Shown: positions 5,386-63,707 of the stretch, in pieces
Position numbering within the stretch: position 1 is the stretch's first letter
Layout of the letters: every line of letters begins with the position of its first letter
Assembly: GCA_963716255.1 (NCBI GenBank)
Contig: OY970303.1
Span: forward strand, 576,001 to 640,000
Direction of reading: 5' to 3'
Length of the DNA stretch: 64,000 nt
From: an uncultured Gemmatimonadales bacterium
GTDB taxonomy: Bacteria; Gemmatimonadota; Gemmatimonadetes; Longimicrobiales; Longimicrobiaceae
Translations under genes and position numbers: made by a program
The notes under the pieces: model-generated
Database searches by the model: none
What the model was told of the DNA's origin: nothing
The model's input: the letters and a program-made list of their open reading frames with translations, nothing else

Positions 5386-5524
5386 GCATGAGGGATTTCG
5401 GCCCGAAGTGGCGAGACCCGGCGGGGCTGTTTCCGCCGGGGCTCGACTCCGTTACGCAGCGTTGTTTGCTGCGTTACGGAGCCGAAGCCCGACCCCGGCG
5501 CCAGCCGGGGGCACGCCCGCACCC
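5386..5524 (+). repeat. Structured intergenic repeat family 1 (Flavo-1-like ends), copy A
   Basis: GCATGAGGGATTTCGGCCC...GAAGCCCGACCCCGGCGCCAGCCGGGGGCACGCCC; conserved scaffold with two variable covarying hairpins (strand given is the GCGTGAGGGAT strand). Confidence 0.9.
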
Positions 5525-5543
5525 GGCAGTTCAACGTTTGAGG

Positions 5544-6353
5544 TCAGAAGATCCCGCCGGTGGGCGAGCAGGTGCAGGAGACTCCCGGCGGGCAGTAGCA
5601 CTCGGGCGCGCTCACACGGACGACGGCCGTACCCTTGAGGGACCCGCCGCTGAGGGTGGCGGTGATGGTCGCCTGGCCCACCGCGTCGACCGAAGGCCCG
5701 GCCTGGACGCCGGCGGCGTACGCGGTTGCGTTGTAGATGGTCGCCACGGCGGTGTTGCTGCTGGTCCAGGTCAGGCTGCGGCTGGTGATCCTGTTGCCGG
5801 CGGCGTCGTAGATCATCCCGGCGAGCTGCCTCGTGGCGCCGATCTGCAGGTCGAAGGTGGAGGGGGTGATCTCCACGCGGGCGGGATCGCCCGGCACGAC
5901 GGTGAAGTAGTAGGTGTTGGTGATCGACGCGTAGCTCACCGTCAGGGCCGTCGTCCCCGCGAGCCCGAAGCGGAGCGTCTGCGCCGGGCCCACCTGGTTC
6001 GGGTACACGATGGCCGCGATCGTGGGATCGGCCACCGACCAGGTGACGCCCCCGGACGGATAGACCCGGCAGTTGTTGGCGCCGTACACCTTGATCGTCA
6101 GCTGGACGGTCGCGCCGCTCCTGAGGGGGTTCGTGGTCCCGCCCGAGTCCAGCTCGAACCGCGTAGCCGTGCAGGGCTGGGTCTGGAAGATGGGCCCGAT
6201 GGGCTCCTTCTCGTAGTCGAAGGCCGCGCGCTCCGAAGCGGCGGTGCGCTCCACGCCGGCGGGCCCGGCGGCGTCCCCGCAGGCCGCCGCGAGGGCGACC
6301 GCGAGGGGCGCCAGGAACAGGCGCAGTGTGGCGAATCGGTCGAAGAGGGACAT
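5544..6353 (-). CDS. Lipoprotein with two bacterial Ig-like (Big_2-type) domains
   Basis: GGAGAAG RBS, LAAAC lipobox, VTWSVADPTIA and LTWTSSNTAVA Ig-like motifs, Cys-rich C-tail. Confidence 0.75.
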   Translation of the reverse strand: MSLFDRFATLRLFLAPLAVALAAACGDAAGPAGVERTAASERAAFDYEKEPIGPIFQTQPCTATRFELDSGGTTNPLRSGATVQLTIKVYGANNCRVYPSGGVTWSVADPTIAAIVYPNQVGPAQTLRFGLAGTTALTVSYASITNTYYFTVVPGDPARVEITPSTFDLQIGATRQLAGMIYDAAGNRITSRSLTWTSSNTAVATIYNATAYAAGVQAGPSVDAVGQATITATLSGGSLKGTAVVRVSAPECYCPPGVSCTCSPTGGIF

Positions 6354-6501
6354 GGACTTCTCCTGCGATGGGGTGATGCGAGGGATGCGCCGCACCCGCT
6401 GCGACGCGATTCCAAGCTCTCCCTATCCGCCTGCCGCGACAATCACTTGCGGGCGAGCCGACGGGTTCCGGGGGCGAAACGCACGTTTCCCAGGGCGGAC
6501 G

Positions 6502-6543
6502 AAAAAGAGGCAGCCGCCGCCCGGACGATCCGGACGGCAGCTG
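6502..6543 (-). terminator. Intrinsic terminator downstream of element copy B
   Basis: cagctgccgtccgga-tcg-tccgggcggcggctg followed by cctcttttt. Confidence 0.65.
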
Positions 6544-6549
6544 GGACCC

Positions 6550-6686
6550 GCGTGAGGGATTTCGGCCCGAAGGGGCGAGACCCCGCGGGCAGTTTCGCGG
6601 GGGCTCGACTCCGTTGCAGACGGTCGTTTCGTCTGCTACGGAGCCGAAGCCCGACCCCGGCGCCAGCCGGGGGCACGCCCGAACCC
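6550..6686 (+). repeat. Structured repeat family 1, copy B
   Basis: Same scaffold; variable stem gcagacg-gtcgttt-cgtctgc. Confidence 0.9.
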
Positions 6687-6716
6687 GCCCTTCCAAGCAG
6701 TTCCGCCGTAAAGAAC

Positions 6717-7379
6717 TCAGCCGAACGAGCTGCCCCCGTAGTGCGGCACCAGGAACGGGTTCGCCACCCGCTCGAACCCCACGGTGGTCTCCGGCCCGTG
6801 CCCGGAGTACAGCGCCGTCTCGTCGGGAAGCGTCAACACCTGTTCGCGGATGGACTTCATCAGCGTCTGGAAGTCGCCGCCGGGCAGGTCCGTGCGCCCG
6901 ATGGAGCCGCGGAACACCACGTCGCCCACCAGCGCGTACCCCTCGCCCACCAGCGTGACGTGCCCCGGCGCGTGCCCCGGCGTGTAGCGCACCTGCAGCT
7001 CGCACTCGCCGAAGCGCACCGGCTCCCCCGGCTCCAGGTAGCCGTCCGCGGGGGGCGGGGTCTCGGCGTACACCCCGAACATCTGCGCCTGCTGCGGCGC
7101 CGCGGCGTACATGGGCTCGGCGTCGCGGTGCAGGAGCACCGGCGCCGACGTCTCCCGCTTAGCGCGCGCGACGCCCTCCACGTGGTCCAGGTGCGTGTGC
7201 GTCAGCACGATCAGCTCGATCTGCATCTCCTGCCGCCTGGCCTCCGCCAGCGCGTCGGGGGTGGCGGCCCCGGGGTCCACCAGGATCGCCCTGCCCGTGC
7301 GCGTGCAGCTCACCAGGAACACGTTCTGGGCGAAGGGCCCGCCCGTGAAGCTGCGGACGGTGGCCTCGCCGCGGCCCAT
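6717..7379 (-). CDS. MBL-fold metallo-hydrolase (glyoxalase II-like)
   Basis: THTHLDH, TPGHAPGH, GDVVF, GRTDLPGG, SGHG. Confidence 0.9.
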   Translation of the reverse strand: MGRGEATVRSFTGGPFAQNVFLVSCTRTGRAILVDPGAATPDALAEARRQEMQIELIVLTHTHLDHVEGVARAKRETSAPVLLHRDAEPMYAAAPQQAQMFGVYAETPPPADGYLEPGEPVRFGECELQVRYTPGHAPGHVTLVGEGYALVGDVVFRGSIGRTDLPGGDFQTLMKSIREQVLTLPDETALYSGHGPETTVGFERVANPFLVPHYGGSSFG

Positions 7380-7380
7380 C

Positions 7381-7830
7381 TCAGCCACGGAGTGCCTCCA
7401 GCACCTCGTCCGCGCCGTGCGCACCCGGCGCCGCGTACACGATGCGCCCGTGCGTGTCGACCAGGAAGGTGGCGCGCGCGATCCCGCCGTTCTCCTTGAG
7501 CGTCCCGTACGCCCGGGCGATCTCCCGGTCCGCGTCCAGGATCAGCGGAAAGTCCAGGTCGTACTTGTCGCGGAAGCGCCGGTGGCTGACCATGCTCCCG
7601 TCGTTGACGCCGAAGCGCGCCACCCCCGCCGCCGCGTACTGCGCGCCCTCGTCGCGCGCCGTGCACATCTGCTTGGTGCAGCCGGGCGTGTCGTCCTTCG
7701 GGTAGAACATCAGCAGCACCGACTGCTTCCCCCGGAAGTCGTGGAGGGAGACGGTGCCGCCGTCGGTGGTCTGCGCGGTGAAGTTGGGCGCGTCCGAGCC
7801 CGCGTTCAGAAGGGTGTCCGTGGCCGACAT
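7381..7830 (-). CDS. bcp: Peroxiredoxin, BCP/PrxQ type
   Basis: FYPKDDTPGCTKQMC active-site motif; start MSATDT. Confidence 0.88.
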   Translation of the reverse strand: MSATDTLLNAGSDAPNFTAQTTDGGTVSLHDFRGKQSVLLMFYPKDDTPGCTKQMCTARDEGAQYAAAGVARFGVNDGSMVSHRRFRDKYDLDFPLILDADREIARAYGTLKENGGIARATFLVDTHGRIVYAAPGAHGADEVLEALRG

Positions 7831-8032
7831 GTGCTCGCTCCGATCGGGGTGGTTTCGTGAGTCGGTCCCGCCTGGAACTATGGCGGCAGGGCCGGGGGAT
7901 GGCAACCGACCGGCGGCGGTCCGCGCGCGCGGTCGCGCATGGTTCGCCGCTTGCGTGGTCGTGGCCCCGGACCCTGCGGCCAGACGGCCCCCCGCGGCAC
8001 GCACCCGGACGGAAGAGGCGCACTCCAGCCCC

Positions 8033-8773
8033 ATGCGCGACCAACGCGGACCCGTCACCGGCGAGTGGAGCGACCTCGCCTTCCTCAACTTCCGTGTCCA
8101 CCCGGACCTCCTCGCCCCCCACCTTCCCGCCGGCACCGAGCCGGACCGGTGGCGGGGCGAGTGCTGGCTGAGCGTCGTCGGCCTGCACGTGCGCGACCTC
8201 CGCATCGGTGGCGCCCCCGCACCGCTGCACCGCGACTTCGCCCAGGTCAACCTCCGGCTGTGCGTGCGCCGGACCGTCCGCGCCCGCGGAGGCACCCAGG
8301 TGCGCCGGGGCGCCGTCCTGATGCGCGAGTTCGTCCCCCGCCCCGCGCTGGCCGCCGCGCCCGGGCTGGCGCGCGAGGAGCCGCTGCAGCCCGCCGTCCT
8401 GCGGCGCCGCACCCTCCCCGACGCGCAGGCCGACGCCGGCGCGGTCGCCGAGTACGTGTGGGACGAGCTGATCCGCGGCGGCCGGCTGTTCGCCGAGGCC
8501 AGGGGGCCGGCCGAGCCGCTGCGGCCGGGCTCCTTCGAGGAGTGGATCGCCGAGCGCTGCTGGGGCTATTCGGGGCGCAGGGGCGGGCCGGCCGCCGAGT
8601 ACCGCCTGGAGCACCCGCGCTGGACCGTGAGGGCGGCCGCCCGCGCGCAGCTCTCCGGCAACCTGGCCGCCACCTTCGGCGAGGAGTTCGCCGACGTGCT
8701 GCACGGCGAGCCCGTGTCCGCGTTCCTGGCGAGCGGGTCCAGGGTGGTCGTGCATGCGCCGTCGCTGTTCTGA
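8033..8773 (+). CDS. YqjF/DUF2071 family protein
   Basis: WSDLAFLNF, FAQVNLR, WIAERCWGY, EHPRW resemble DUF2071. Confidence 0.75.
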   Translation: MRDQRGPVTGEWSDLAFLNFRVHPDLLAPHLPAGTEPDRWRGECWLSVVGLHVRDLRIGGAPAPLHRDFAQVNLRLCVRRTVRARGGTQVRRGAVLMREFVPRPALAAAPGLAREEPLQPAVLRRRTLPDAQADAGAVAEYVWDELIRGGRLFAEARGPAEPLRPGSFEEWIAERCWGYSGRRGGPAAEYRLEHPRWTVRAAARAQLSGNLAATFGEEFADVLHGEPVSAFLASGSRVVVHAPSLF

Positions 8774-8813
8774 ACGGCTTGTGACGGACGGATGGACGGA
8801 CGGATGGACGGCA

Positions 8814-8949
8814 GGGTTCGGGCGTGCCCCCGGCTGGCGCCGGGGTCGGGCTTCGGCTCCGTAGGGCTGCAAACGACGCAGCCCAACGGAGTCGAGCCCC
8901 GACGATACTGCTGTCGGGTCTCGCCCCTTCGGGCCGAAATCCCTCACGC
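8814..8949 (-). repeat. Structured repeat family 1, copy C
   Basis: Same scaffold inverted; stem gggctgc-aaacgac-gcagccc. Confidence 0.9.
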
Positions 8950-8980
8950 GGGGCTCGCGCTGGCGTCCGCGGGGACCCCC

Positions 8981-9050
8981 ACCCGGCTCGCTTTAGGCTC
9001 GCCACCCTCCCCCTTCATGCGGTTCACGCGAAGCGTGAAGCGCCATTCTG
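8981..9050 (+). repeat. Intergenic repeat family 3
   Basis: acccggctcgctttaggctcgccacc...ttcacgcgaagcgtgaagcgccattctg; 67/70 identical to 56301-56370 by eye; partial copy at 58770-58818. Confidence 0.8.
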
Positions 9051-9155
9051 AGCGCGCACGCGATACCTGCCGCATCCCCGGAACAGGCCGGAAAACAGCA
9101 GGGGCGGCCCCCGTCGCCGGAAGCCGCCCCCTTCTCCTCTGATCCAGCATCGCCT

Positions 9156-9410
9156 TCAGTCGTCCCACTCCGAGGTATCCGAAGCCTCCGCGGCATCGTC
9201 TCGGGCCGAGCCTTCGGCGGCGTGCGGCCGGGCGATCTCCTCGCGCGTCCGCTGCGTCTGCGTGAGGAGCCGGCGCGCGCGGGTCATCAGCGCCTCCACC
9301 TCGCGCTGCGTCTCCTGCATCTGCTCGAACGCCGCCTGCCGGTGCTGCACCGCGCGGCGCAGCTCCGCCTCCAGGGTGCTCCACTCGTCCTGCTGAAAGG
9401 GCTCGCTCAT
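9156..9410 (-). CDS. Small coiled-coil hypothetical protein (84 aa)
   Basis: GGAG RBS, MSEPFQQDEWSTLEAELRRAV..., GC3-rich codons. Confidence 0.6.
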   Translation of the reverse strand: MSEPFQQDEWSTLEAELRRAVQHRQAAFEQMQETQREVEALMTRARRLLTQTQRTREEIARPHAAEGSARDDAAEASDTSEWDD

Positions 9411-9507
9411 GCGCTCGCTCCAGGCTCGTACCACGCTGCGGGAATGCGACTTGCGTTTCCGGGCGCCCCCAAGCCCGGCAGACGACACGGTGACAAGGAG
9501 GCCGTTC

Positions 9508-9822
9508 ATGGACCGCAGCGACGACGTCCGCAGCACCGAGGACACCACCGCCAACCGCGAACACGCGCACAACGCGGAGGAGAACCGCGACGCCCTGGCC
9601 GCGCAGGCCGAGCGCACCCGCGCCACCACGCCCGCGGCAGCCCACACCCCCGTCGGCGCGGCGGGCGCAGCCGGGGGCGGCACCGCGATGGACAACACCG
9701 AGGCCGTGCGCGCGGCCGCCGAGAACCGCGACGCCCTCGCCGAGGAGAACCGGCGCGTCGCCGCCACCACCCCCGACGACGTGCCCATGACCGGGCCCGA
9801 CACCCGGCGGGAGGACCGGTGA
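9508..9822 (+). CDS. Small hydrophilic low-complexity protein (104 aa)
   Basis: AAGGAGG RBS; internal ENRDALA repeats. Confidence 0.65.
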   Translation: MDRSDDVRSTEDTTANREHAHNAEENRDALAAQAERTRATTPAAAHTPVGAAGAAGGGTAMDNTEAVRAAAENRDALAEENRRVAATTPDDVPMTGPDTRREDR

Positions 9823-9859
9823 GCCGCGGCGGCTAGCGCCGCCGCGAGGGGGGAGCGGG

Positions 9860-11554
9860 TCAGCGCCCGGCGGCGACCCGCTCCCCCGTTTCCATCGCGG
9901 CCAGCTCCGGGTCCGACTGCGGCAGGCTCAGCAGGAAGCAGCTTCCCTCCCCCGGCGCCGAGGACACCGTCAGCGATCCTCCCAGGAGCTCCGCCAGGCG
10001 CCGCGAGATCGGCAGCCCCAGCCCCGTCCCCTGCGTGCTGTGGGGCTGCTCCAGCTGCACGAACTCGTCGAAGATCTTTTCCTGGTCCTCCGCGGCGATC
10101 CCCTCCCCCTGGTCCACCACCTCCACCACCAGCCCCCCGTCCTCGCGCCGCGCCGAGATCACCCGCACCGGCTTGCCGCCGCCGAACTTGATGGCGTTGG
10201 AAAGCAGGTTGAGGAGGATCTGGCGAACCCGCCGCGCGTCCGAGACGATGGTGAACGGATCGCTCCGCCTCTCCAGCGCCAGCGGCACCCCGTGCTGCTC
10301 CGCGAAGGGGGCCACCGTCACGAACAGGTCCTGGATCAGCTCCGGGAAGCCCACCGACTCCAGCTGGAGCTCCATCTTGCCCGCCTCGATCTTGGACAGG
10401 TCCAGGATGTCGTTGACCAGCTCCAGCAGGTGGTTGGCCGCCTTGTGCGTCCGCTCGATGCTGTTGACCTGCGGGTCGTTGAGCGGGCCGTAGATGCGGT
10501 CCAGGAGGAGCGAGCTGTAGCCCAGGATGGCGTTGATGGGGGTGCGCAGCTCGTGGCTCATGTTGGCGTAGAAGCGGCTCCGCGCCCCCATGGCCCGCTC
10601 CAGCTCGATCGTGCGGCGGTTCAGCTCCTCGTTGAGCACCCGAAGCTCCTCCATGGTGTTCGCCAGCGACACCGCCTGCGCCCGCACCGCCTCCTCCGCC
10701 TGCCGCCGCTCCGAGATGTCGCGCAGGATCAGCGTGTACACCCGCTCGTTTCGCTGCACCAGCGACGACAGCGAGAACTCCGCCGGGAAGCGCTCCCCGT
10801 CGCCGCGCACCCCCACCGCCTCGCGCACCGACGACTCGCTGGCGCGTCCGGCCACGGCCGCCCCGTTGCCGCGTCCGCGGGGGGGCTTGCCCGGGCTCAG
10901 GTCCAGCGCCGGGTGGAAGAAGCGGTCGATCGCCGTCCCCACCGCTTCCGCCATGCTGCAGCGGAAGACCCGCTCCGCCGCCGCGTTGAAGAGCGTGATC
11001 CGCCGGTCCCCGCCGAAGGTGACGATCGCCTCCAGCGCCGAGTCCACGATGTCCGCGTAGCGCGCCTCCGACTCCAGGAGCTGCGCGCGGTGCAGCAGCT
11101 CCGTCTCGCGCCGCTCGCCCTCGCGCAGCATGTCGTCCTGCTGGCGGAGCTGCACCGTCTTCAGGTACAGCTCCACGAAAACCGCCACCTTGGAGCGGAG
11201 GATCGCCGGGTTGAAGGGCTTGAACATGTAGTCCACCGCCCCCGCCGAGTACCCCTCGAAGACGTACTCCTCCTCCTTGCTGATGGCCGTCAGGAAGATG
11301 ATGGGCGTGGCGCGCGAGCGCTCGCGGGACTTGATCAGCTGGGCCGTCTCGAAGCCGTTCATCCCCGGCATCTGCACGTCCAGGAGGATCACCGCGAAGT
11401 CGTGCAGGAGCACCTGCCGCAGCGCCTCCTGCCCCGAGGTGGCGCGGACCAGCTCGTGCCCCAGCGGCTGGAGGATCGCCTCCAGCGCCACCAGGTTCTC
11501 CATGCGGTCGTCCACCATCAGGATCATGGCGCCGGACTGCGGGGTGTCGGCCAT
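9860..11554 (-). CDS. Hybrid sensor kinase REC-PAS-HisKA-HATPase
   Basis: ILMVDD...LLDVQMP receiver, PAS (FNAAAERVF), [16 protein letters not shown]; coupled to the cheB stop. Confidence 0.9.
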   Translation of the reverse strand: MADTPQSGAMILMVDDRMENLVALEAILQPLGHELVRATSGQEALRQVLLHDFAVILLDVQMPGMNGFETAQLIKSRERSRATPIIFLTAISKEEEYVFEGYSAGAVDYMFKPFNPAILRSKVAVFVELYLKTVQLRQQDDMLREGERRETELLHRAQLLESEARYADIVDSALEAIVTFGGDRRITLFNAAAERVFRCSMAEAVGTAIDRFFHPALDLSPGKPPRGRGNGAAVAGRASESSVREAVGVRGDGERFPAEFSLSSLVQRNERVYTLILRDISERRQAEEAVRAQAVSLANTMEELRVLNEELNRRTIELERAMGARSRFYANMSHELRTPINAILGYSSLLLDRIYGPLNDPQVNSIERTHKAANHLLELVNDILDLSKIEAGKMELQLESVGFPELIQDLFVTVAPFAEQHGVPLALERRSDPFTIVSDARRVRQILLNLLSNAIKFGGGKPVRVISARREDGGLVVEVVDQGEGIAAEDQEKIFDEFVQLEQPHSTQGTGLGLPISRRLAELLGGSLTVSSAPGEGSCFLLSLPQSDPELAAMETGERVAAGR

Positions 11555-12138
11555 CAGCGCTTCTCCCCCGGGCGTGCCGGGGACGATTGCAGGGTGAGGA
11601 GGCGCGCCGCGATCCCCTCCAGCGTCAGCACCTCCGCCTCGGGGACCGCGCGCAGCGCCGCGGCGGGCATCACCTTCACCTCCGCGGTGGCCGGGTCCTG
11701 GACCAGCGCCGTCCCGCCGCGGTCCACGATCCGGCGCAGGCCGCGGGCCCCGTCGTGGTTGGCGCCGGTGAGCACCACGCCCACCGCGCGGGCGCCGTAG
11801 GCGTCTGCGGCGCTCTCGAAAGCCACGTCGATGGACGGGCGGCTGTACATCTCGGGCGCGTCGGTGGAAAGGGAGAAGTACCCCGGCTCCAGCAGCGTGT
11901 GGTAGTCCGGGGGGGCCAGGTACACGTTGCCCGGCTCGGCCGACGCCTTGTCCGTCACCTCCTGGATCGCCAGCGGCGTGCAGTCCTGCAGCACCTCGCA
12001 GAGCGCGTCCGAGTCCTTGCTGCGGTGCTGCACCACCACGACGGCCATGCGGAAGTCGCCCGGGAGCCCGCCCAGCAGCGTGCACACCGCGTCCAGCCCC
12101 CCCGCGGAAACCCCCACCATCACGATCTCGCGCGCCAC
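11554..12138 (-). CDS. cheB: CheB-type methylesterase, catalytic domain only
   Basis: GVSAGG, VQH, RPSIDV, LTGANHDG; GTG start overlaps the cheR stop. Confidence 0.88.
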   Translation of the reverse strand: MAREIVMVGVSAGGLDAVCTLLGGLPGDFRMAVVVVQHRSKDSDALCEVLQDCTPLAIQEVTDKASAEPGNVYLAPPDYHTLLEPGYFSLSTDAPEMYSRPSIDVAFESAADAYGARAVGVVLTGANHDGARGLRRIVDRGGTALVQDPATAEVKVMPAAALRAVPEAEVLTLEGIAARLLTLQSSPARPGEKR

Positions 12139-12998
12139 TAGACCACCTTCCGGTAGATCTTTTCGCGCTGGTTGATCGCCTCGTAGCACTCCTCGTACTT
12201 GGAGAACTTGAGCGATTCCTTGCTCCCCAGCGCCAGGATCCCGTAGGTGGGCAGGCTCTCGTAGAACAGCTCGTGCACCCGGTTCTGCAGCGACCGGTCG
12301 AAGTAGATCATCACGTTCCGGCAGAGGATCACGTTGAACTCGCTGAACGAGCGGTCCGTCACCAGGTTGTGCTGCGCGAACACCACGTTCTCCCGCAGAG
12401 CCGGCGAGAACAGCGCCCCGCCGTACGCCGCGGTGTAGTACTCCGAGAAGGAGCGCATGCCGCCCGCCCGCAGGTAGTTCTGCGTGTACTCCTGCATCTT
12501 TTCCAGCGGGAAGATCCCCGCCCGCGCCTCCGCCAGCACCACCTCGTTGATGTCCGTGGCGTACACCCGGGACCGCTCCAGCAGCCCCTCCTCCTTGAGG
12601 AGGATCGCCATGGAGTACACCTCCTCCCCCGTCGAGCACCCGGCGTGCCACACCCGGATGAAGGGGTAGGTGCGCAGCAGCGGCACCACCTCCGCGCGGA
12701 ACGCCCGGTAGAAGTTGGGGTCGCGGAACATGGACGTGACGTTGACCGAAAGGTCCAGGAGCATCCGCTCCATCGCGCTCCGGTCGTGCAGCACCCGCTC
12801 CTGCAGGCCGCTCACCGTGCCGAGCCCCTCCGCCCGGATCCGCTTCCACAGCCGCCGCCGCAGCGAGGCGTAGGCGTACGAGCGGAAGTCGAAGCCGTAG
12901 TGGCGGAAGATCCCCTCCAGCAGGATCTCGACCTCCACCCGCTCCAGCTCCGGAGAATAGCTTTCCGGGGCCGTGGGCAGCCCCCCCGCGGCGTTCAT
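12138..12998 (-). CDS. cheR: CheR-type protein-glutamate O-methyltransferase
   Basis: VNVTSMFRD, RVWHAGCSTGEEVYS, ATDIN, CRNVMIYF. Confidence 0.93.
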   Translation of the reverse strand: MNAAGGLPTAPESYSPELERVEVEILLEGIFRHYGFDFRSYAYASLRRRLWKRIRAEGLGTVSGLQERVLHDRSAMERMLLDLSVNVTSMFRDPNFYRAFRAEVVPLLRTYPFIRVWHAGCSTGEEVYSMAILLKEEGLLERSRVYATDINEVVLAEARAGIFPLEKMQEYTQNYLRAGGMRSFSEYYTAAYGGALFSPALRENVVFAQHNLVTDRSFSEFNVILCRNVMIYFDRSLQNRVHELFYESLPTYGILALGSKESLKFSKYEECYEAINQREKIYRKVV

Positions 12999-13005
12999 GC
13001 GCCGG

Positions 13006-20379
<7,374 letters not shown>

Positions 20380-21510: not shown

Positions 21511-21649
21511 GGGTTCGGGCGTGCCCCCGGCTGGCGCCGGGGTCGGGCTTCGGCTCCGTAACGCACGAAACAACCGTGCGTAACGGAGTCGAGCCCCGGC
21601 GGAAACAGCCCCGCCGGGTCTCGCCCCTTCGGGCCGTAATCCCTCACGC
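21511..21649 (-). repeat. Structured repeat family 1, copy D
   Basis: Stem acgcacg-aaacaac-cgtgcgt. Confidence 0.9.
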
Positions 21650-24894: not shown

Positions 24895-25047
24895 GCGGTA
24901 CCCATAAAAATCTGTTCGGAGGGAGACAGCCGGGCTGTTTCGGCTGGCTCACTCCGGCGCAGGGAGACAGGCCGGCTGTTTGGCCTGGCTCCCGGAGCCC
25001 GCGCAGGAGACGGACGGCTGTATCGTCCGGCTCCGGAGCGGCCCGCC
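24895..25047 (+). repeat. Structured repeat family 2 (three-hairpin element), copy a
   Basis: Three GGAGAC-stem-GGCWGTWT-stem-GGCTC modules joined by GCGCA/GGAGC linkers. Confidence 0.85.
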
Positions 25048-29936: not shown

Positions 29937-30069
29937 GGGTCCGGGCGTGCCCCCGCTGGCGCGGGGTCGGGCTTCGGCTCCGTAGAGCAGCAGACTACGC
30001 TGCTCAACGGAGTCGAGCCCCGCGAAACTGCCCGCGGGTCTCGCCCCTTCGGGCCGAAATCCCTCACGC
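29937..30069 (-). repeat. Structured repeat family 1, copy E
   Basis: Stem gagcagc-agactac-gctgctc; terminal hairpin one bp shorter on both arms. Confidence 0.9.
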
Positions 30070-33290: not shown

Positions 33291-33425
33291 GGGTTCGGGC
33301 GTGCCCCCGGCTGGCGCCGGGGTCGGGCTTCGGCTCCGTAAGCCCGCAAACAACGCGGGCTAACGGAGTCGAGCCCCGGCAAACTGCCGCCGGGTCTCGC
33401 CCCTTCGGGCCGAAATCCCTCACGC
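33291..33425 (-). repeat. Structured repeat family 1, copy F
   Basis: Stem agcccgc-aaacaac-gcgggct. Confidence 0.9.
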
Positions 33426-43733: not shown

Positions 43734-43870
43734 GGGCGAATCCCCGGCCGATACTGCCCGGCCGGGGACCGGGCTCTATTCTGCTGGACACGAAACTACC
43801 GTGTCCAGCAGAACGGAGCCGCCGGAAACAGCCCCGGCGTCTCCGCCCTTCGGGTTACGATCCCTTTCGC
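43734..43870 (-). repeat. Divergent family-1 variant (1b), left arm of an inverted pair
   Basis: Reverse strand GCGAAAGGGAT...CCCGAAGGG...GGAGAC-stem-GGCTGTTT...GAGCCCGGTCCCCGG...GGGGATTCGCCC. Confidence 0.8.
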
Positions 43871-43988: not shown

Positions 43989-44124
43989 GCGAAAGCGATC
44001 GTGACCCGAAGGGCGGAGACTCGCCGGCAGTTTGGCGAGGCTCCGTTCTCCTGGACACGGTCGTTTCGTGTCCAGGAGAATAGAGCGCGGTCCCCGGCCG
44101 GCAGTATCGGCCGGGGATTCGCCC
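43989..44124 (+). repeat. Divergent family-1 variant (1b), right arm of an inverted pair
   Basis: GCGAAAGCGAT...CCCGAAGGG...GAGCGCGGTCCCCGG...GGGGATTCGCCC; inverted relative to 43734-43870. Confidence 0.8.
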
Positions 44125-53580: not shown

Positions 53581-53750
53581 GCGGCTCGATAAATCGCCCA
53601 GCTCTGCGTTGCCCTGCGGGCGGCTCCCTGCGACGTACATGAAGTACGTCTCGGTCGCCGTCCTCGGGCGCCTTGATCTGCACGATTTCTCTTCGCCTCA
53701 CCCGGTGAGGCAGTGAACGGCCGGAAGGCCCGGCAGTCCGTTGTAGTTCC

Positions 53751-53900
53751 GCAGTACCCACATAATCCGTTGCGGAGGGAGACAGCCGGCAGTTTGGCTG
53801 GCTCACTCCGGCGCAGGGAGACTCGCCGGCTGTTTGGCGAGGCTCCCGGAGCCCGCGTAGGAAACAGGCCGGCAGTTTGGCCTGGTTCCGGAGCGGCCCC
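53751..53900 (+). repeat. Structured repeat family 2, copy d
   Basis: Three hairpin modules. Confidence 0.85.
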
Positions 53901-53969
53901 GACGCAGCACCCCGACCGGAACACGACCCACCTTCCCACCTTCATAATTCTCCTGCAGGAAAACCCTGA

Positions 53970-54575
53970 ATGAAGCAGAGCGGCGTACATCCAAAGCACA
54001 TCGACGCGATCCGCGAGGTGGTGAACATCGGGGCCGGCCACGCGGCGACCGCGCTCTCCACCATGACCAACGTCACGGTGATGATCTCCGTCCCCCGGAT
54101 CCTGTGGACGGACCGCCCGGCGGACGCGGAGCCGGCGCTGCCGCAGGACGACCGCCTGGTGCTGATCTCCATCCCCGTGGAGGCGAAGTCCTCGGGCGAG
54201 GGCGAGCGCGCCTCGCTGATCATCGGGCGGAGGACGGCAATGCGCATGGTGGGGCTGCTGCTGCGGCGCCAGGTGGACCCGGACGGCGAGCTGGGGATGC
54301 TGGAGCGCTCCACGCTCCAGGAGCTGGGCAACATCGTCTGCGCGTCGTACGTGGGGGTGCTGGGGACCTTCCTGGGCGAGAGCGTGATGATCGGGACGCC
54401 GGAGTTCCGCGAGGGCCCGCACGCGGAGATCGCGGCGGACATGGCCAACGGGCTGGTGATCGAAACGGACTTCACGCTGCAGGATTCCACCTTCGAGGGG
54501 GTGTTCGTGCTCACCCACAGCGAGGTGTCGTTCAACTCGCTGATCGCCGCGCTGGGGCTGTCGGACGTTTCCTGA
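53970..54575 (+). CDS. cheC: CheC-like phosphatase
   Basis: DAIREVVNIGAGHAATALS and STLQELGNI (two ExxN motifs). Confidence 0.8.
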   Translation: MKQSGVHPKHIDAIREVVNIGAGHAATALSTMTNVTVMISVPRILWTDRPADAEPALPQDDRLVLISIPVEAKSSGEGERASLIIGRRTAMRMVGLLLRRQVDPDGELGMLERSTLQELGNIVCASYVGVLGTFLGESVMIGTPEFREGPHAEIAADMANGLVIETDFTLQDSTFEGVFVLTHSEVSFNSLIAALGLSDVS

Positions 54576-54615
54576 CGCGCGGCGCGGGGACCGGCCCTTG
54601 CGTGCGCGGGCCGGC

Positions 54616-56316: not shown

Positions 56317-56370
56317 GCTCGCCACCCTTTCCCTTCATCCGGTTCACGCGAAGCGTGAAGCGCCATTCTG
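56301..56370 (+). repeat. Intergenic repeat family 3, overlapping the glpD stop
   Basis: Near-identical to 8981-9050. Confidence 0.8.
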
Positions 56371-56413
56371 GGAGAGGGGGCAACGGCTGGACATAGAGTA
56401 CGGGCAGGCAGTT

Positions 56414-56563
56414 GCGTGAGGGATTTCGGCCCGAAGGGGCGAGACCGCGCGGCACCTCAGTTCAGAGGTGCTGGCGCGGGCTCGACTCCGTTGGCGAGCG
56501 TTGTTTGCTCGCTTACGGAGCCGAAGCCCGACCCCGGCGCCAGCCGGGGGCACGCCCAAACCT
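56414..56563 (+). repeat. Structured repeat family 1, copy G (extended P4 arm)
   Basis: Scaffold intact; one arm lengthened (gcacctc-agttca-gaggtgc). Confidence 0.88.
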
Positions 56564-56588
56564 GCCGTGACGAGCAGTTCAGCCGTCT

Positions 56589-56765
56589 CTATCCCACGAA
56601 CATCGGCGACAGGAGCCAGAGCGCCGCGGCCGCCAGCGCGAGCACTCCGAGGACCACCGCCACCCCCTGGCCGACGCTCCGCCCCCGGGTCGGCACCTCG
56701 TCCTTGACGTGCGGGACGGGCTGGGACCCTCCCTCGAACGGCGGATCACGATCGGGCGTGCTCAA
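56589..56765 (-). CDS. Small membrane protein, 58 aa (not in the ORF track)
   Basis: GGGAGGGAG RBS, TTG start; MSTPDRDPPF...GVAVVLGVLALAAAALWLLSPMFVG*. Confidence 0.55.
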   Translation of the reverse strand: MSTPDRDPPFEGGSQPVPHVKDEVPTRGRSVGQGVAVVLGVLALAAAALWLLSPMFVG

Positions 56766-56838
56766 TTGCGCTCCCTCCCCACGGGTGGATTCGGATGCCG
56801 ACGGGCCGCTCCTCCGCGCAACCCGCGTGCCCGCCGGG

Positions 56839-57816
56839 TCACGGGATGATCACCGGCTGCGGCCGGCGCGTGACGGTGTCGGGCCGCGCCGGAGACTCCT
56901 CCTGCTGCTCCTCGGCTTCCTCCTCGCGGCGCCGCTCCGCCTCCTCCTGGCGCCGGCGCTCCGCTTCCTGCGTCCGCCGCCGCTGGGCCTCCGTGGGCGC
57001 CTGCTGCTTGGGCACAGCGCGTGGGGGCTGCTGCTGCGCGCGCGGCTGCGGGGTGCCCGCGGCGGGCGGCCTCGCCTGTCCGGGCGCGGCCGCGGGCGGA
57101 GCGCCCGGACGCACGGCCGGCTGCCCCGGGGCCTGGCCGGGCACCTGCGCCGGGCCGGCGGGCGGCACCGCCGCCGCGCGGGCCGAGTCGGCAAGGCGCA
57201 CCGAGTCCGCCCGCAGCGAGTCCGCGAGCCGCAGCGAGTCGCGGCGCACCGAGTCGGCGCGGATGGAGTCCACGTTGAGCTTGACGAAGCCGCCCTGGTA
57301 GCGGACGAAGGGCTGCCGCACGGCGGTGCGCACCAGGGCGGCCCTGGCCCCGGTGGACCACGTCTGCGCGGCGGAGAGCGAGGTCAGCTCGATCCACAGC
57401 GTGTCGCGCTTCACCCGCCCGGCGATGAAGCTCCCCGCCCCGTCCGGCCCGAACGCCACCACCGAAAGGATCCCGTCGCGCCGCACCTCGCCCACGAACG
57501 GGAACTGCTGCCCGTCGCGCACGTAGGCGCCGGCGACCGAGTCCAGCCGCTGCGTGCGCACCGCCAGCGCGCCCGGGGGGAGCATCCCCGCCCCCTCCGT
57601 GACGGTGTCGCGCACCGGCAGCTCCCAGCCGGCGAAGCGCCAGGTGCCCGCCACCTCGGGGAGCCCGGCGCGCGCCTCGGGGCTGGGGCGCTTCAGCGCG
57701 GGGAGCGGCTGCACGTCCACGCCTTCGGCCTCCTCGCAGGCGGCGAGGACGAGCAGGAGGAGCGCGGCACGCCGCGGCGCTGCGAGGACGGCGGGGAACA
57801 TCCTGGACTTTGGCAT
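56839..57816 (-). CDS. Hypothetical lipoprotein with Pro/Ala-rich and charged C-terminal tail
   Basis: LAAC lipobox; ADS-type repeats; start uncertain (57816 or 57801). Confidence 0.7.
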   Translation of the reverse strand: MPKSRMFPAVLAAPRRAALLLLVLAACEEAEGVDVQPLPALKRPSPEARAGLPEVAGTWRFAGWELPVRDTVTEGAGMLPPGALAVRTQRLDSVAGAYVRDGQQFPFVGEVRRDGILSVVAFGPDGAGSFIAGRVKRDTLWIELTSLSAAQTWSTGARAALVRTAVRQPFVRYQGGFVKLNVDSIRADSVRRDSLRLADSLRADSVRLADSARAAAVPPAGPAQVPGQAPGQPAVRPGAPPAAAPGQARPPAAGTPQPRAQQQPPRAVPKQQAPTEAQRRRTQEAERRRQEEAERRREEEAEEQQEESPARPDTVTRRPQPVIIP

Positions 57817-57910
57817 CGGCTGGAACCCTGGAAGACGTGTCACGCCCGGGCGATACCGGGGCGGGTTGCGCCCCTGTTGGCGCAGTTTCCGCCAGTGCGC
57901 GCGCGGGAGG

Positions 57911-57939
57911 TTGACATCATGTGGCGCATTCCGTACTTT
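57911..57939 (+). promoter_or_regulatory. Sigma70-type promoter of the Fur-family gene
   Basis: TTGACA-17 bp-TACTTT. Confidence 0.65.
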
Positions 57940-57998
57940 GCTGATCAGGCTACGACCGGACCCTGGGATCCGTCCGGACGAACTCCTACGAGGCCGTC

Positions 57999-58448
57999 AT
58001 GTTCACCACCTCACGAACCGTACCGTCCGACGCGGACACCGTGCTGCGGGCGGCGCTGGAAGCCAACGGGCAGCGCTACACCGACCAGCGCGCCGCCGTC
58101 TACCGGTTCCTGTGCGCCACCCTGGAGCACCCCACGGCGGACGAGGTGTTCACCGCGGTCCGCGCCCACATCGCCGACATCTCGCTGGCCACGGTCTACA
58201 AGGCGCTGGAAACGCTGGTCACCTGCGAGCTCGCCATCAAGCTGACCTACGGCGACGGCTCGGCGCGCTACGACGCCCGCACGGACGACCACTGCCACTC
58301 GCGGTGCCTGGGCTGCGGCAACGTGCGCGACATCCCCGACCACCACGTGGCGGCGCTTCCCCGGATCGAGGTGGGCGACGGGTTCGCGGCCCAGGGGTAC
58401 CGGGTGGAGGTCGTCGGGCTCTGCCGGTCCTGTACGGCGTCGCACTGA
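57999..58448 (+). CDS. Fur family regulator (PerR-like)
   Basis: T.QR, HPTADEV, SLATVYKAL, HCH..CLGC, CRSC. Confidence 0.9.
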   Translation: MFTTSRTVPSDADTVLRAALEANGQRYTDQRAAVYRFLCATLEHPTADEVFTAVRAHIADISLATVYKALETLVTCELAIKLTYGDGSARYDARTDDHCHSRCLGCGNVRDIPDHHVAALPRIEVGDGFAAQGYRVEVVGLCRSCTASH

Positions 58449-58474
58449 GGGTTTCTCTTCCAGGTTGTCGATTC

Positions 58475-58514
58475 GGGCGCTCTCCGGCTTCGTGCCGGGG
58501 GGCGCTTTCGTTTT
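58475..58514 (+). terminator. Intrinsic terminator after the Fur-family gene
   Basis: gggcgctctccggc-ttcgt-gccggggggcgctt followed by tcgtttt. Confidence 0.6.
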
Positions 58515-58540
58515 GTACGGCCACGGCTTACGGCTACGGC

Positions 58541-58672
58541 GGGTTCGGGCGTGCCCCCGGCTGGCGCCGGGGTCGGGCTTCGGCTCCGTAGAGCAGCAAA
58601 CAACGCTGCTCAACGGAGTCGAGCCCCGCAAACTGCGCGGGTCTCGCCCCTTCGGGCCGAAATCCCTCACGC
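58541..58672 (-). repeat. Structured repeat family 1, copy H
   Basis: Stem gagcagc-aaacaac-gctgctc. Confidence 0.9.
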
Positions 58673-59159
58673 GACAGGCCCCCTCCCCCCGGCCCCCTCC
58701 CCCGCAAGCGGGAGAGGGGGAGCACTGCGTCGCGTCCACGGACACCCGGCGGGCGTCCTGGGCGCCCCCACCCGGCTCGCTTGAGGCTCGCCACCCTCCC
58801 CCAATTCTGGGGGAGGGTTTCCTGTCGTTCTGGGATTTGCGCCGGGAGGTCGGGGGAGGGTCCGCAGGCAGTGCGTTTGTTCGAAGCCAGCGTGATCCCG
58901 CCCTCACTCGGAGGGCTGGCGAGTGCTCTGCGAGTCCCTTCGGGTGTCGCACTGCCGGAGGAGCCGCCCCCGGCCGACCCCATACCCGGAGCCCGCCGGT
59001 GCGCGCAGTCGTTGCTCCGCTCTCCGCCCGGCACCGGTCCGCCGGGCGAATGATGGACGGCGTTCGCGGCGGGTGTCAAGCGTTGATGAACCGGTCCCGC
59101 GGGGAGAGATTGGGGTGGCCCGGAGACATGGGCGCGAGCGACAACGGAAGGGGAGGACG

Positions 59160-60707
59160 ATGAAGCACGGACCGAGCGACCCCGCGGACTTCCGCGGGGC
59201 CTTCCTGCGGGACCCCGAGGCGCGAGGCCCCTTCGGCGCGGCGTCGGGGATCCTGCGCATGACGCCGGATGCGGTGGCGACCCCGGAGGACGCCGAGGAC
59301 CTGGCGGCGCTGGCGCGCTGGGCGGGGCGCACCCGCACGGCGCTGGTGCCGCGCGGCGCGGGGACAGGGATGCCGGGGGGCAACGTGGGGCGCGGGGTCG
59401 CGGTGGACCTGGTGGCGCGCTTCCGGGGGGTGGAGGAGGTGGACGCGGAGGGGCGGCTCGTCCGGGTGCGGCCGGGAACCACGCTGGCGGAGCTGAACGC
59501 GGCCTGCGCCCCGCACGGGCTGCACTTTCCCGTGGACCCGTCCAGCGGCGCGCGAGCCACGCTGGGAGGGATGATCGCCAACAACTCCGCCGGGTCGCAC
59601 TCGGTGAAGTACGGGGCGGTGCGGCCGTGGGTGCAGGCGCTGGAGGTGGTGCTGGCGGACGGCACGCGGGCGTCGCTGGCGAGGGGGGAGGAGCCGCGGG
59701 AGCCGGCGATGCGGCGCATCCTGGACCGGGTGCGCCGCGAGCTGCGTCCGCACCGGGCGCGCATCGAGGCGCGCTGGCCGCGCGTTCGCAAGAACTCGTC
59801 GGGGTACGCGCTGCGCGAGTTCCTGGAGAGCGGCGACGCCGTGGACCTGCTGGTGGGGAGCGAGGGAACGCTGGCGCTGCTCACCGGGGCGACGCTGCGC
59901 CTGGCGCCTCTCCCCGCCGCGCGCGGGCTGGCGCTGCTGGAGTTCACCTCGCTGGAGCACGCCGGCGAGGCCGTGCGCGAAGTGCTGCGCCACGACCCCG
60001 CCACCTGCGAGATGCTGGACCGCACCTTCCTGGACCTGGTGCGCGGCGGCGGCGACCCCGGCTACCCGCTCCGCCCCGGGCTGGAAGCCGTCCTCCTGGT
60101 GGAGGTGGAGCGCGACTCCGCCGCGGAGGTGGAGCGGGCGCTCGCCGGGATCGCCGCCGCGCTGGAGGGCGTGGCGGACCGCGTGGTCGCCGCCAGCGAC
60201 CCGGACGAGCAGGAGCGGCTCTGGCACCTGCGGCACGCCGCCTCCCCGCTGATCGCGGCGCGGGCCGGCGGCCGCGTGTCCATGCAGTTCATCGAGGACG
60301 GCGTGGTGCCCGTGGAGCGCCTCCCCGAGTACGTCCGCGCGCTCCGCGGCACGCTGGAGCGGCACGCGCTCCCGGCGGTCATCTTCGGGCACGCGGGCGA
60401 CGGCAACCTGCACGTGAACCCGCTGGTGGACGTGGCCGCGGCGGGGTGGCAGCGGCAGGTGGAGGGAATCGTGTACGAGATCGCGGACGCGGTGGCCGCG
60501 CTGGGCGGCACCATGGCCGGCGAGCACGGCGACGGGCGGCTGCGCGCGCCCGTGCTGGAAACCATCTGGGGCGCGGAGATGGTGGCGCTCTTCCGGCGCG
60601 TCAAGGAGGCCTTCGACCCGGCGGGGATCCTGAACCCCGGGGTGATCCTCCCCCTCCCCGGGCAGCGCCCGCTGGACGCCGTCGGCGAGTACCCGGCGCC
60701 GGCCTGA
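59160..60707 (+). CDS. FAD-binding oxidoreductase (GlcD/D-lactate dehydrogenase-like)
   Basis: PRGAGT, DPSS..RATLGGMIANN, GSEGTL, GHAGDGNLH, GEHGDG, FDP.GILNPG. Confidence 0.88.
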   Translation: MKHGPSDPADFRGAFLRDPEARGPFGAASGILRMTPDAVATPEDAEDLAALARWAGRTRTALVPRGAGTGMPGGNVGRGVAVDLVARFRGVEEVDAEGRLVRVRPGTTLAELNAACAPHGLHFPVDPSSGARATLGGMIANNSAGSHSVKYGAVRPWVQALEVVLADGTRASLARGEEPREPAMRRILDRVRRELRPHRARIEARWPRVRKNSSGYALREFLESGDAVDLLVGSEGTLALLTGATLRLAPLPAARGLALLEFTSLEHAGEAVREVLRHDPATCEMLDRTFLDLVRGGGDPGYPLRPGLEAVLLVEVERDSAAEVERALAGIAAALEGVADRVVAASDPDEQERLWHLRHAASPLIAARAGGRVSMQFIEDGVVPVERLPEYVRALRGTLERHALPAVIFGHAGDGNLHVNPLVDVAAAGWQRQVEGIVYEIADAVAALGGTMAGEHGDGRLRAPVLETIWGAEMVALFRRVKEAFDPAGILNPGVILPLPGQRPLDAVGEYPAPA

Positions 60708-60797
60708 GCCGCGCCCCGGGGGCGCACGGAAACCGCTCGTGGCCGGCGGGTTGCAGGCGGGGCGCGGGGCGGCTCCCGGAAACGGGGAGCCGCCCCC

Positions 60798-60826
60798 TTG
60801 CGTTCCGCGGGGATGGCGCATACCTT
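60798..60826 (+). promoter_or_regulatory. Possible sigma70-type promoter for lrp-glnA
   Basis: TTGCGT-17 bp-TACCTT. Confidence 0.4.
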
Positions 60827-60885
60827 GCTTGCGATTGAAAGCAGGAAGTCTAATTCACCTACTTTTTGAAAGCGTTCGATCCAAA

Positions 60886-61356
60886 TTGGCTCGAATCGAC
60901 AGCATCGACCTGCGCCTGCTGACCCTGCTCCAGGAGCACGGGCGCACCTCGCAGCAGGAACTCGCCCACGCGGTGGGGCTTTCCGGGCCCGCCGTGGGCG
61001 ACCGGCTCCGCAAGCTGGAGGAGGCCGGAGTCATCCGCCACTTCGGCGTCGTGCTGGACCCCAAGAAGCTGGGGCGCGACGTCACCGCCTTCATGGCGGT
61101 GGGGATCAGCGGATCGCAGCACTACGCCGACTTCCTGGAGCGCGTCGACGCGCACCCGGAGATCCTGGAATGCCACTCGGTGACCGGGCAGGGCTCGCAC
61201 CTGCTCAAGGTCCGCACCGAGAGCACCTCCACGCTGGAGCGCCTCCTGGCCGAGATCCAGGCCTGGGAGGGCGTCCAGTGGACGCAGACCAGCATCGTCC
61301 TTTCGACCATCAAGGAGACCAGCCGCCTGTCGCTGGACTCGCCACCCCGCACCTGA
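60886..61356 (+). CDS. Lrp/AsnC family transcriptional regulator
   Basis: [31 protein letters not shown]. Confidence 0.9.
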
Positions 61357-61369
61357 AGGACCATCGCCC

Positions 61370-63571
61370 ATGCCCAAGCCCTCGCCCCGCTTCGACACCC
61401 TTGCCGCGGCCACCGGGTGGACCCCGGCCGCCCGCAACGGCCCGGCCGTGGACCGCCGCAAGAGCGAGCTGACGGACATCGAGTCCATCTTCGGCACCAA
61501 CATCTTCGGCCTGGCGGAGATGCGCTCGCGCCTCCCCAAGCAGGTCTACCGGGCCGTCGTGTCCACGCTGGAGCAGGGGCAGCCGCTGGACCCGGCCTTC
61601 GCCGACGCGGTCGCCATCGCCATGAAGGAGTGGGCGCTGGAGCGCGGGGCGTCGCACTTCACCCACTGGTTCCAGCCGCTCACCGGCCTCACCGCCGAGA
61701 AGCACGACTCCTTCATCACGCCCAACGTGGGCGGCGGTGCGGTGGCGGAGTTCAACGGCAAGGAGCTGATCCAGGGCGAGCCGGACGCCTCGTCGTTTCC
61801 CTCGGGCGGGCTGCGCGCCACCTTCGAGGCGCGCGGCTACACCGCGTGGGACCCCACCTCCCCGGCCTTCATCGTGGAGTCGGCGGCGGGGTGCTACCTG
61901 TCCATCCCCACCGCCTTCGCCTCGTGGACGGGCGACGCGCTGGACACCAAGATCCCGCTGCTGCGCTCGGTGAGCGCGCTGGACCAGCAGGCGCGCCGCG
62001 CGCTCAAGCTGTTCGGCGTGGAGGGCGCCCGGGTGAACGCCACCTGCGGGCCGGAGCAGGAGTTCTTCCTCATCGACCAGGAGTTCTACTACCGGCGGCC
62101 CGACCTGGTGACCACCGGGCGCACCCTCTTCGGGGCGAAGCCGCCGCGCGGGCAGGAGCTGGAGGACCACTACTTCGGCTCCATCCCCGACCGGGTGCTC
62201 GCCTTCATGACCGAGGTGGAGCGCGACCTGTACCGGCTGGGCGTGCCGGTGAAGACGCGGCACAACGAGGTGGCGCCCGGACAGTTCGAGATGGCGCCCA
62301 TCTACGAGAACGCCAACCTGGCGGCCGACCACCAGCAGCTGATGATGCTGACGCTGCGCGGCGTCGCGCGGAAGTACGGCATGGCGTGCCTGCTGGCGGA
62401 GAAGCCCTTCGCCGGGGTGAACGGGAGCGGCAAGCACCTCAACTGGTCGCTGGGAACGGAGTCCGCCAACCTGCTTGAGCCGGGCGACACGCCGCACGAC
62501 AACATGCAGTTCCTGTTCTTCTGCGTGGCCGTGCTGCGGGCGGTGGACCGGCACCAGGACCTGATCCGGGCCTCGGTGGCCTTCGCGGGGAACGACCACC
62601 GCCTGGGCGCCAACGAGGCCCCGCCGGCGATCATCTCGGTGTTCCTGGGCGACCAGCTCACCGACGTGCTGGAGCAGCTGGTGGAGAGCGGGAGCGCCAC
62701 CTCCAGCAAGCAGAGCGGGCTGCTGGGGCTGGGCGCGCAGGTGCTCCCCCACATCCCGCAGCACGCGGGCGACCGCAACCGCACCTCGCCCTTCGCCTTC
62801 ACCGGCAACAAGTTCGAGTTCCGGGCGCTGGGGGCGTCGCAGTCCGTGTCCTTCCCGGCCACGGTGCTCAACACCATCATGGCCGAGTCGCTGGACGAGA
62901 TGTGCTCGATGCTGGAGGGCGAGCTCCAGGGCGGCGCCGACTTCGAGGAGGCGCTCCGCCGGCTGCTGTCCACGGAGATGCGCCGGGTGCGCCGCATCGT
63001 CTTCAACGGCGACGGCTACAACGAGGAGTGGCACCACGAGGCGGAGAGCCGGGGGCTCCTCAACCTGCGCACCACGCTGGACGCCCTGGAGATGCTGGCC
63101 ACGGACAAGAACCGGGAGCTCTTCGCCAAGTACGGCGTCCTGTCGCACCGGGAACTGGAGTCGCGGCACGAGGTGGCGCTGGACCAGTACTTCAAGACCA
63201 TCAACATCGAGGGCGAGACCACCGCCGACATCGCCAGCACCATGATCCTGCCGGCGGCGGTGCGCTACCTGGGCGACCTGCTGGCCGCCACCGACCGCTC
63301 GCGCGGGCTGGGGCTGGAGGCCGGCGGCCTGCGGCGCACCGCGGAAAAGGTGAACGGGCTGGTGGACGAGCTGCGCGACGCGCTGGACCGGCTCATCGAG
63401 CAGAACGAGGAGCTGGGCGGCGAGGAGGTGCACTCCAAGGCGTACCACATGCGCGACCACGTGGTCCCGGCGATGCTGGCGGTGCGCGGCGTCGCGGACC
63501 GGCTGGAAAAGGTGGTGCCGGACGACTACTGGCCGCTCCCCACCTACCGGGACATGCTGTTCGTGAAGTAG
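61370..63571 (+). CDS. glnA: Glutamine synthetase type III
   Basis: [58 protein letters not shown]; 733 aa. Confidence 0.95.
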
Positions 63572-63600
63572 CCGGTCCGGACGGAGCGGGATGAACGGCA

Positions 63601-63707
63601 GGGTTCGGGCGTGCCCCCGGCTGGCGCCGGGGTCGGGCTGCGGCTCCGTAGCAGACGAAACGACCGTCTGCAACGGAGTCGAGCCCCGACGATACTGCTG
63701 TCGGGTC
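63601..63707 (-). repeat. Structured repeat family 1, copy I (interrupted by IS)
   Basis: Matches the family up to ...CGGGTC, then switches to the IS end. Confidence 0.88.

Follow-up and report, generated by a model that had tools for sequence, protein, structure and literature searches.

A high-copy intergenic repeat of a Gemmatimonadota genome that probably folds as single-stranded DNA and resembles a cassette of phages and plasmids

Several described systems resemble the element treated here, a multi-branch unit of about 130 nt that recurs between genes in a 64,000-nt window (contig OY970303.1, 576,001–640,000; assembly GCA_963716255.1, referred to below as the source genome). Flavo-1 (Rfam RF01705; excerpts of PMC2864571) is a multi-copy intergenic motif with a GCGTNAGGGAT-N ... 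N'-AGCCCGACC core, a single A.G mismatch and a covarying N-N' pair, and the supplement of that paper classes it as RNA. REP sequences are defined, in passages of PMC3733652, by a terminal GTAG or CGTC tag and a unit of 20–40 bp. Frpo1 and Frpo2 (ssiD) of plasmid F are class 1 single-stranded DNA (ssDNA) promoters with a hairpin bearing −35/−10 boxes, and single-strand initiation (ssi) or primosome assembly sites, such as those of phiX174, G4 and RSF1010 (ssiA), carry GNA mini-hairpins on the ssDNA of mobile elements, as the element's homologues do.

We consider it probable that the element is an intergenic repeat of REP-like character and high copy number. Its three-way-junction core recurs in a cassette carried by phages and by the leading regions of plasmids; the repeat likely folds as ssDNA, and gene conversion between its copies likely keeps it uniform. 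Linking the repeat with this cassette and with Flavo-1 is new here; neither the repeat nor the cassette in the Frpo flank is described in the literature covered, which was mainly open-access and included portions of PMC9849209, PMC7690428, PMC12672017, PMC11541004 (with Supplementary Table 2), PMC3733652, PMC9029176, PMC4129139 and PMC6854812.

The likeness to Flavo-1 lies in its intergenic placement and in the core, GGGAT-N...N'-AGCCCGA with the same A.G mismatch and covarying pair, which is present in the element. The element differs in its four-way inner arm junction, its three hairpins, its Gemmatimonadota host and its reading as DNA, whilst the Rfam model has neither the 3' hairpin nor the closing stem; a search with that model gave no match in the window and none in a loose first look at the source genome, and Rfam as a whole gave nothing relevant in the window at gathering thresholds or, for 5200–9200, at E ≤ 10. 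A first-pass annotation of the window had proposed Flavo-1-like ends, and here the terminal core common to both stands, but the element does not score as a member of the Rfam family. With REP, BIME and REPIN sequences the element shares hundreds of extragenic copies, a bias towards convergent and co-directional gaps, use as an insertion sequence (IS) landing pad and clouds of alleles, whereas its 130-nt multi-branch unit has no GTAG/CGTC tag and no RAYT, and its homologues are single-copy in phages and plasmids; by sequence and flank profile it is not a REP as defined. As for Frpo, each of the two promoters is followed on its 3' side, at about 94 nt and on the same strand, by a homologue with two arms that falls outside the published ssiD fragment; ssi1-3 of ColIb-P9 have no such homologue, the source genome has no Frpo-like promoter, and the element has no homology to the ssiD hairpin with its −35/−10 boxes. 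By the tests run, the repeat works like a REP and is not a member of REP-RAYT, MITE (miniature transposable element with inverted repeats), Frpo or Rfam Flavo-1.

Fold, copy number and copies in the window

DNA folding gives a closing stem, P1, followed by a three-way junction (A, GA and one free base), from which P2, carrying a single A.G mismatch, leads into a four-way junction with three arms, a C-GNA-G mini-hairpin, P4 and P5; a separate 3' hairpin is referred to as P6. The base of P4 is GAGAC/GGCTC with an A.G mismatch, the P5 arm has a T.T mismatch, and both arms are capped by a common loop type, G-Y-N-G-T-W-T. The ends of the element pair over 5 bp only. Since the DNA fold has z = −7.1 (0 of 200 shuffles equally stable) and a 25-nt anchor has 389 exact matches in the 8.42 Mb source genome, the element is not a product of chance. 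The near-invariant scaffold, the closed multi-branch fold and the compensatory covariation reported in the first-pass annotation all hold.

The source genome, one contig of 73% GC from a soil bacterium, has 868 profile matches, 811 of them with both ends and 748 of distinct sequence, far more than had been noted. Near-full copies (819) fall into types A (734), A2 (54), B (22) and C (9). All eight same-genus genomes, which we infer to be of Longimicrobium type, match the end pattern, with 4 to 566 matches each, and 4 of 32 other relatives match it once or twice, approximately at the level of a reversed control. The same element occurs in named records of Longimicrobium and Longimicrobiaceae and of a few further Gemmatimonadota bins.

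In the window the features are as follows.

5386–5518, plus strand: type A copy with two changes that break pairs
6550–6680, plus strand: type A copy; the same site is occupied by other alleles or types in relatives G001, G006 and G003
8820–8949, minus strand: type A copy
8950–9015, minus strand: 5' linker (GCGGACGCCAGC) and a module of a separate DUF559-flanking repeat family, the usual 5' neighbour of the element
21517–21649, minus strand: type A copy
29943–30069, minus strand: type A copy whose final hairpin lacks one pair
33297–33425, minus strand: type A copy
43734–43870, minus strand: type C copy, divergent, between nuoJ and nuoI
43989–44124, plus strand: type C copy, divergent, between nuoJ and nuoI, with GGGCGGAGAC...GGCTCCGTTC in common with the F-plasmid form
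56414–56557, plus strand: type A copy, P4 arm extended
58547–58672, minus strand: type A copy
63607–63704, minus strand: 3' half of a copy broken by an insertion sequence
63705–64000, minus strand: terminal part of an IS481-like insertion of about 1.33 kb that continues past the window; it lies at GAGAC of the repeat and has a direct repeat of AGAC

The element is present at all nine positions first annotated and eight of these copies are whole, whilst the ninth is the 3' half only, with the IS481-like insertion after GAGAC and the 5' half beyond the window; the two type C copies had been overlooked. Seven different P5 stems had been listed, which is borne out, except that the stem of the copy at 56414 is GGCGAGC/GCTCGCT with one G.T pair. 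The last hairpin at 29943 is shorter by one bp as described, but pairing is not kept throughout, given the two changes at 5386.

Short tandem repeats (GGAC/GGAT units and GCAGTT/GCCGTT hexamers) lie directly 3' of many copies, at 8787–8812 in the window and in many intergenic gaps, and resemble the arm loop motif. A second repeat family, at window positions 24895, 30705, 33579 and 53749, consists of three GAGAC-stem-GYNGTWT-stem-GGCTC arms of the same type as P4 and has 59 strict-pattern matches in the source genome.

Arm alleles and genomic neighbourhood

Arms were parsed in 775 of the 788 type A and A2 copies, and P5 was counted in 770. Of these 7-bp stems, 701 are perfectly paired, 28 include G.T pairs and 41 are broken. 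Thirteen perfect alleles with n ≥ 10 account for 689 copies and differ on average at 3.7 of the 7 bases, whereas 17 of the 18 broken alleles have n ≤ 2; the covariation therefore lies among amplified alleles, and single copies decay. The earlier argument that a neutral MITE would lose its pairs is thus right for the alleles that spread, which keep the fold, but copies do decay, with 69 of 770 P5 stems imperfect, mostly singletons. P4 and P5 alleles combine near-independently (68 of 72 combinations; Cramér's V 0.15, p = 0.051).

Comparison with relatives shows replacement of these alleles in place. At sites orthologous to those of G001, with flanks about 95% identical, the element is present at 16 of 21, and the five "absent" sites comprise three internal deletions, one gene-call artefact and one empty site. 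Among G001 pairs with 95% coding identity the P5 stem differs in 9 of 14, and an overlapping set of type A pairs shows 13 of 16 different; in G008, 6 of 11 orthologous sites are occupied and the stem differs in all four pairs compared. Point change alone would leave about 70% of arms identical. One orthologous site carries types A, A, B and A2 across four genomes. Alleles are thus replaced in place, which we take to be most simply gene conversion, and we read the pattern as REP-like concerted evolution and not as selection at each locus. The suggestion that the structure is actively regenerated therefore holds, in that stem alleles are shuffled and replaced at orthologous sites.

By our own crude gene calls, 801 copies are intergenic: 279 in convergent gaps, 252 co-directional and antisense, 225 co-directional and sense, and 45 divergent. 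Convergent gaps are enriched, copies lie close behind stop codons, and the sense and antisense counts do not differ significantly (p = 0.23). Insertion sequences enter at preferred points: all eight IS481-like left ends lie directly after GAGAC, four IS4 elements lie in the P4 loop and one IS5-like element in the P5 loop, the IS481 and IS5 assignments scoring below curated cut-offs. The IS481-like element at the window edge has its other end about 1 kb past the window. Four of the eight IS481-like insertions are 300-bp non-coding derivatives at the same element site (source genome 3578303, 4484834 and two more).

In its copy number, its position between genes and its targeting by IS elements the repeat matches REPs (passages of PMC3733652), and presence or absence at orthologous sites is also what a classical MITE or a RAYT-driven REP would give. 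Such an origin is nevertheless highly improbable. The Y1_Tnp domain has no match in the source genome or in seven of the eight same-genus genomes, the eighth having one IS200-sized match; no target-site duplication was detected (best of 960 tests, 6 observed vs 1.9) and empty orthologous sites show none; the ends pair over those 5 bp only and bear no tag. The first-pass annotation had proposed a search for a RAYT or HUH gene flanked by the element, and none was found in the source genome. A RAYT-driven REP is thereby already largely refuted, although an unrecognised transposase may be at work. Other enzyme searches of the source genome returned two GIY-YIG matches, one reverse transcriptase gene, in a low-GC island without the element, and, for phmmer with relaxase, Rep and leading-region proteins, weak or housekeeping matches only. 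Paralogue families beside the element are mainly IS transposases, and the 120 genes bounded by it on both sides are, among the shorter ones listed, unrelated to each other.

The 5' side has a typical neighbour. The linker occurs 329 times, 292 of them immediately 5' of the element, and 422 of the 811 copies have a linker no more than 40 nt upstream. DUF559-type modules, of which the source genome has 519, are found 5' of 305 copies and 3' of none, at distances of up to 250 nt. Of the 30 DUF559 genes, 25 are bounded on both sides by inverted CCCTCCCC-type repeats (for example at 125.1–125.6 kb of the source genome), a REPtron-like layout but with a PD-(D/E)XK-type nuclease in place of RAYT. These observations would fit a passenger without activity of its own, copied via the abutting DUF559-flanking repeats, with hairpin-templated repair keeping its stems paired; changes at the P4 A.G mismatch, which are mostly stem-perfecting (50 of 51), agree with such repair. 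We regard this as unlikely: 506 of the 811 copies have no module within 250 nt, the element never adjoins a DUF559 gene, its A.G and T.T mismatches persist in more than 90% of copies where pure palindrome repair would erase them, and unrelated phages and plasmids conserve the core, in one copy each. In our own reading, new sites are probably gained together with the DUF559-associated repeats on the 5' side.

Homologues in phages and plasmids

Among IMG/VR contigs, end patterns gave 5, 90, 18, 12 and 40 stretches, mostly one per contig, carried by microviruses, inoviruses and tailed phages. Two positions were left free by the search pattern. Of 105 distinct viral copies, 103 have a pair at P1 position 5 (T-A 76, G-C 17, C-G 10) and 100 at the end of P2, where all four pair types are represented. 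In the viral set the folding strand contains GCGNAGC 35 times and the opposite strand not once. The Rfam Flavo-1 model scores 2 of 20 viral loci. A cultured-phage collection yielded two microvirus records only.

The surroundings of the viral copies differ between groups. In an antisense microvirus clade (L010, L040, L043, L046, L049, L054, L059, L060, L068, L078, L085) the cassette lies between the VP2 stop and the Rep start. In 15 of 17 tailed-phage loci (L014, L017, L028, L032, L035 and others) it abuts, in antisense, the stop of a gene for a protein of about 550 aa with a Walker-A-like motif and no Pfam or PHROG match, which we guess to be the terminase large subunit; in other tailed phages it lies 5' of the terminase small subunit gene. 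Some phages of 60% GC (L024, L029, L033, L063, L074, L081) have two or three copies, sometimes on both strands and including type C-like starts.

A covariance model was built from 51 phage and plasmid sequences, with no Longimicrobium sequence among them; these training forms are 97.7% paired, a value reached by 0 of 500 shuffles. Run on the window, the model places ten window copies as its top ten matches (E 9e-6 to 0.07, rough values). It also finds 15 of 19 further viral loci, both Flavo-1-scoring loci included, although these were picked by the same end pattern. The cassette consensus (P1 GCGNN/N'N'CGC, A, P2 with A.G mismatch, C-GNA-G hairpin, AGAC/GGCT arm, 3' hairpin and CC tail) fits the element, and the folds agree. 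No match was obtained in 120 other genomes of the phylum, a result of little weight as the model recovers only 1 of about 800 source-genome copies. Flavo-1 probably belongs in the same unnamed ssDNA cassette family, which suggests that it may be a DNA element with an unmodelled 3' half.

In plasmids, a 70-nt phage form matches 3769 records, 2864 of them conjugative, many with weak E-values. The covariance model gives 13 strong matches in six regions, all antisense to leading-type genes, on the strand of the published ssiD, and four in the training set; matches also adjoin ardC, DUF736 and a SLOG gene. Plasmid F (NC_002483) has two-arm homologues at 58091–58172 and 63479–63560 on the minus strand, which lie 93–94 nt 3' of the published ssiD end at both Frpo1 and Frpo2, and three published candidate Frpo* sequences extend into the homologue. 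The fold of the F copy has z = −2.6 on this strand and −0.1 on the other. The plasmid strand in question is the one that exists single-stranded, which speaks for ssDNA as the working form. A blastn search with the F Frpo regions gave no match in the source genome. ColIb-P9 has three class 1 ssDNA promoters, and two of them are followed 3' by a different folded element (at 14989 and 7956, minus strand), in the slot that the cassette takes in F.

Working form and possible function

The identity of the small loop also bears on the choice between DNA and RNA. In the source genome it is GAA, GGA or GCA in 764 of 775 copies; hairpins of the GCGNAGC/GCGNNAGC type are very stable as DNA, whilst r(GCGAAAGC) is much weaker, and one such DNA mini-hairpin binds SSB poorly (sections of PMC13037366). 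Because the loops are those of DNA-type GNA mini-hairpins, the family is read as folded ssDNA and not as non-coding RNA (ncRNA), and DNA is quite likely the working form. CCC-GNA-GGG reads as UNCG on the opposite strand, which the GCGAAGC variant (type A2) does not.

A structured ncRNA, an extended Flavo-1 acting at many loci or in 3' untranslated regions, for example in mRNA stability, would agree with the position behind stop codons and the enrichment in convergent gaps (279 of 801), with good folding under RNA parameters and with the RNA class given to Flavo-1. In one soil RNA run (X1, share 0.07), contigs without strand or ends reach depths of 230–400 over the three copies examined, compared with at most 25 over genes; such a pile-up is expected from about 800 collapsed copies. 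The element is placed at random in sense and antisense to co-directional genes, the GNA mini-hairpins are strand-specific, and Flavo-1 loci of F. psychrophilum are sense or antisense alike and often in untranscribed regions (parts of PMC9723704). This reading is thus improbable, and of the structured ncRNA or ssDNA family first proposed, the ncRNA part is weak and the ssDNA part is favoured.

In the explanation we propose for a folded-ssDNA repeat, a cassette of mobile elements would have acquired one more arm and multiplied in Longimicrobium in the manner of a REP; this offers an origin for a REP-like family needing no RAYT. Its copies are likely rewritten by recombination, such that only folding alleles spread, as donors. 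The fold may, although this is doubtful, provide an SSB-resistant landing pad for a putative host protein able to initiate DNA synthesis or recombination where DNA is single-stranded; plasmids or phages entering the cell would benefit from such a pad, and folded copies in the chromosome would be the better donors. More speculatively still, one undescribed ssDNA structure, partly filed as "Flavo-1 RNA", might recruit a conserved host replication or recombination protein in microviruses, inoviruses, tailed phages and conjugative plasmids, and be able to become a transposase-free self-propagating repeat, as in Longimicrobium and Flavobacteria.

A number of observations weigh against this explanation. 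The relatives are fragmented assemblies, whose repeat alleles are possibly in part mis-assembled, and the viral set was chosen by a pattern that fixes both ends. Counts of G.T and A.C in the source genome (58 vs 48) indicate no choice of strand, and RNA parameters too favour the folding strand, in 79 of 105 viral copies. The element adjoins 0 of 30 DUF559 genes, and no cognate enzyme was found in the searches above. The remaining points count against the priming step, which is plausible in itself. Microvirus copies are sense in 10 of 24 loci and antisense in 14, the latter mostly from one clade; phiX174 does not match the phage/plasmid covariance model; the source genome has no leading/lagging (replichore) bias (429 of 811, p = 0.11); ColIb-P9 has no model match and another folded element in the corresponding slot; and early conversion past both F Frpo promoters is abolished by rifampicin (sections of bioRxiv 10.64898/2026.01.09.698686). 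The same preprint places the main replication block at ssp2, an argument against the cassette acting as a strong roadblock.

The same observations bear on the alternative that the cassette serves plasmids and phages as a true single-strand initiation site, for primase or for assembly of the PriA primosome, and that its chromosomal copies are additional restart or priming sites of use to the host. All 13 plasmid matches place it on the transferred strand, and it is sense to the genes in all four inovirus loci as well as in the sense microviruses; mini-hairpins mark the G4 and RSF1010 priming sites (sections of PMC13037366), and the F-G spacer of phiX174 contains similar hairpin words. Against these stand the phiX174 model result, the antisense microvirus majority, the absence of replichore bias and the rifampicin sensitivity of early conversion in F, and we consider this alternative distinctly unlikely.

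For the cassette read as folded ssDNA, the homologue beside both F Frpo promoters makes function testable in E. coli, and the approximately 800 natural variants of the source genome provide a map of the important pairs, mismatches and loops. Two further features lie apart from the repeat: a gene of 2451 aa at 13006–20358 of the window, with about 14 tandem 276-bp repeats, which we take to be probably a poly-HAMP sensor kinase, and an array of 19 tRNA genes at 3979719–3981636 of the source genome.

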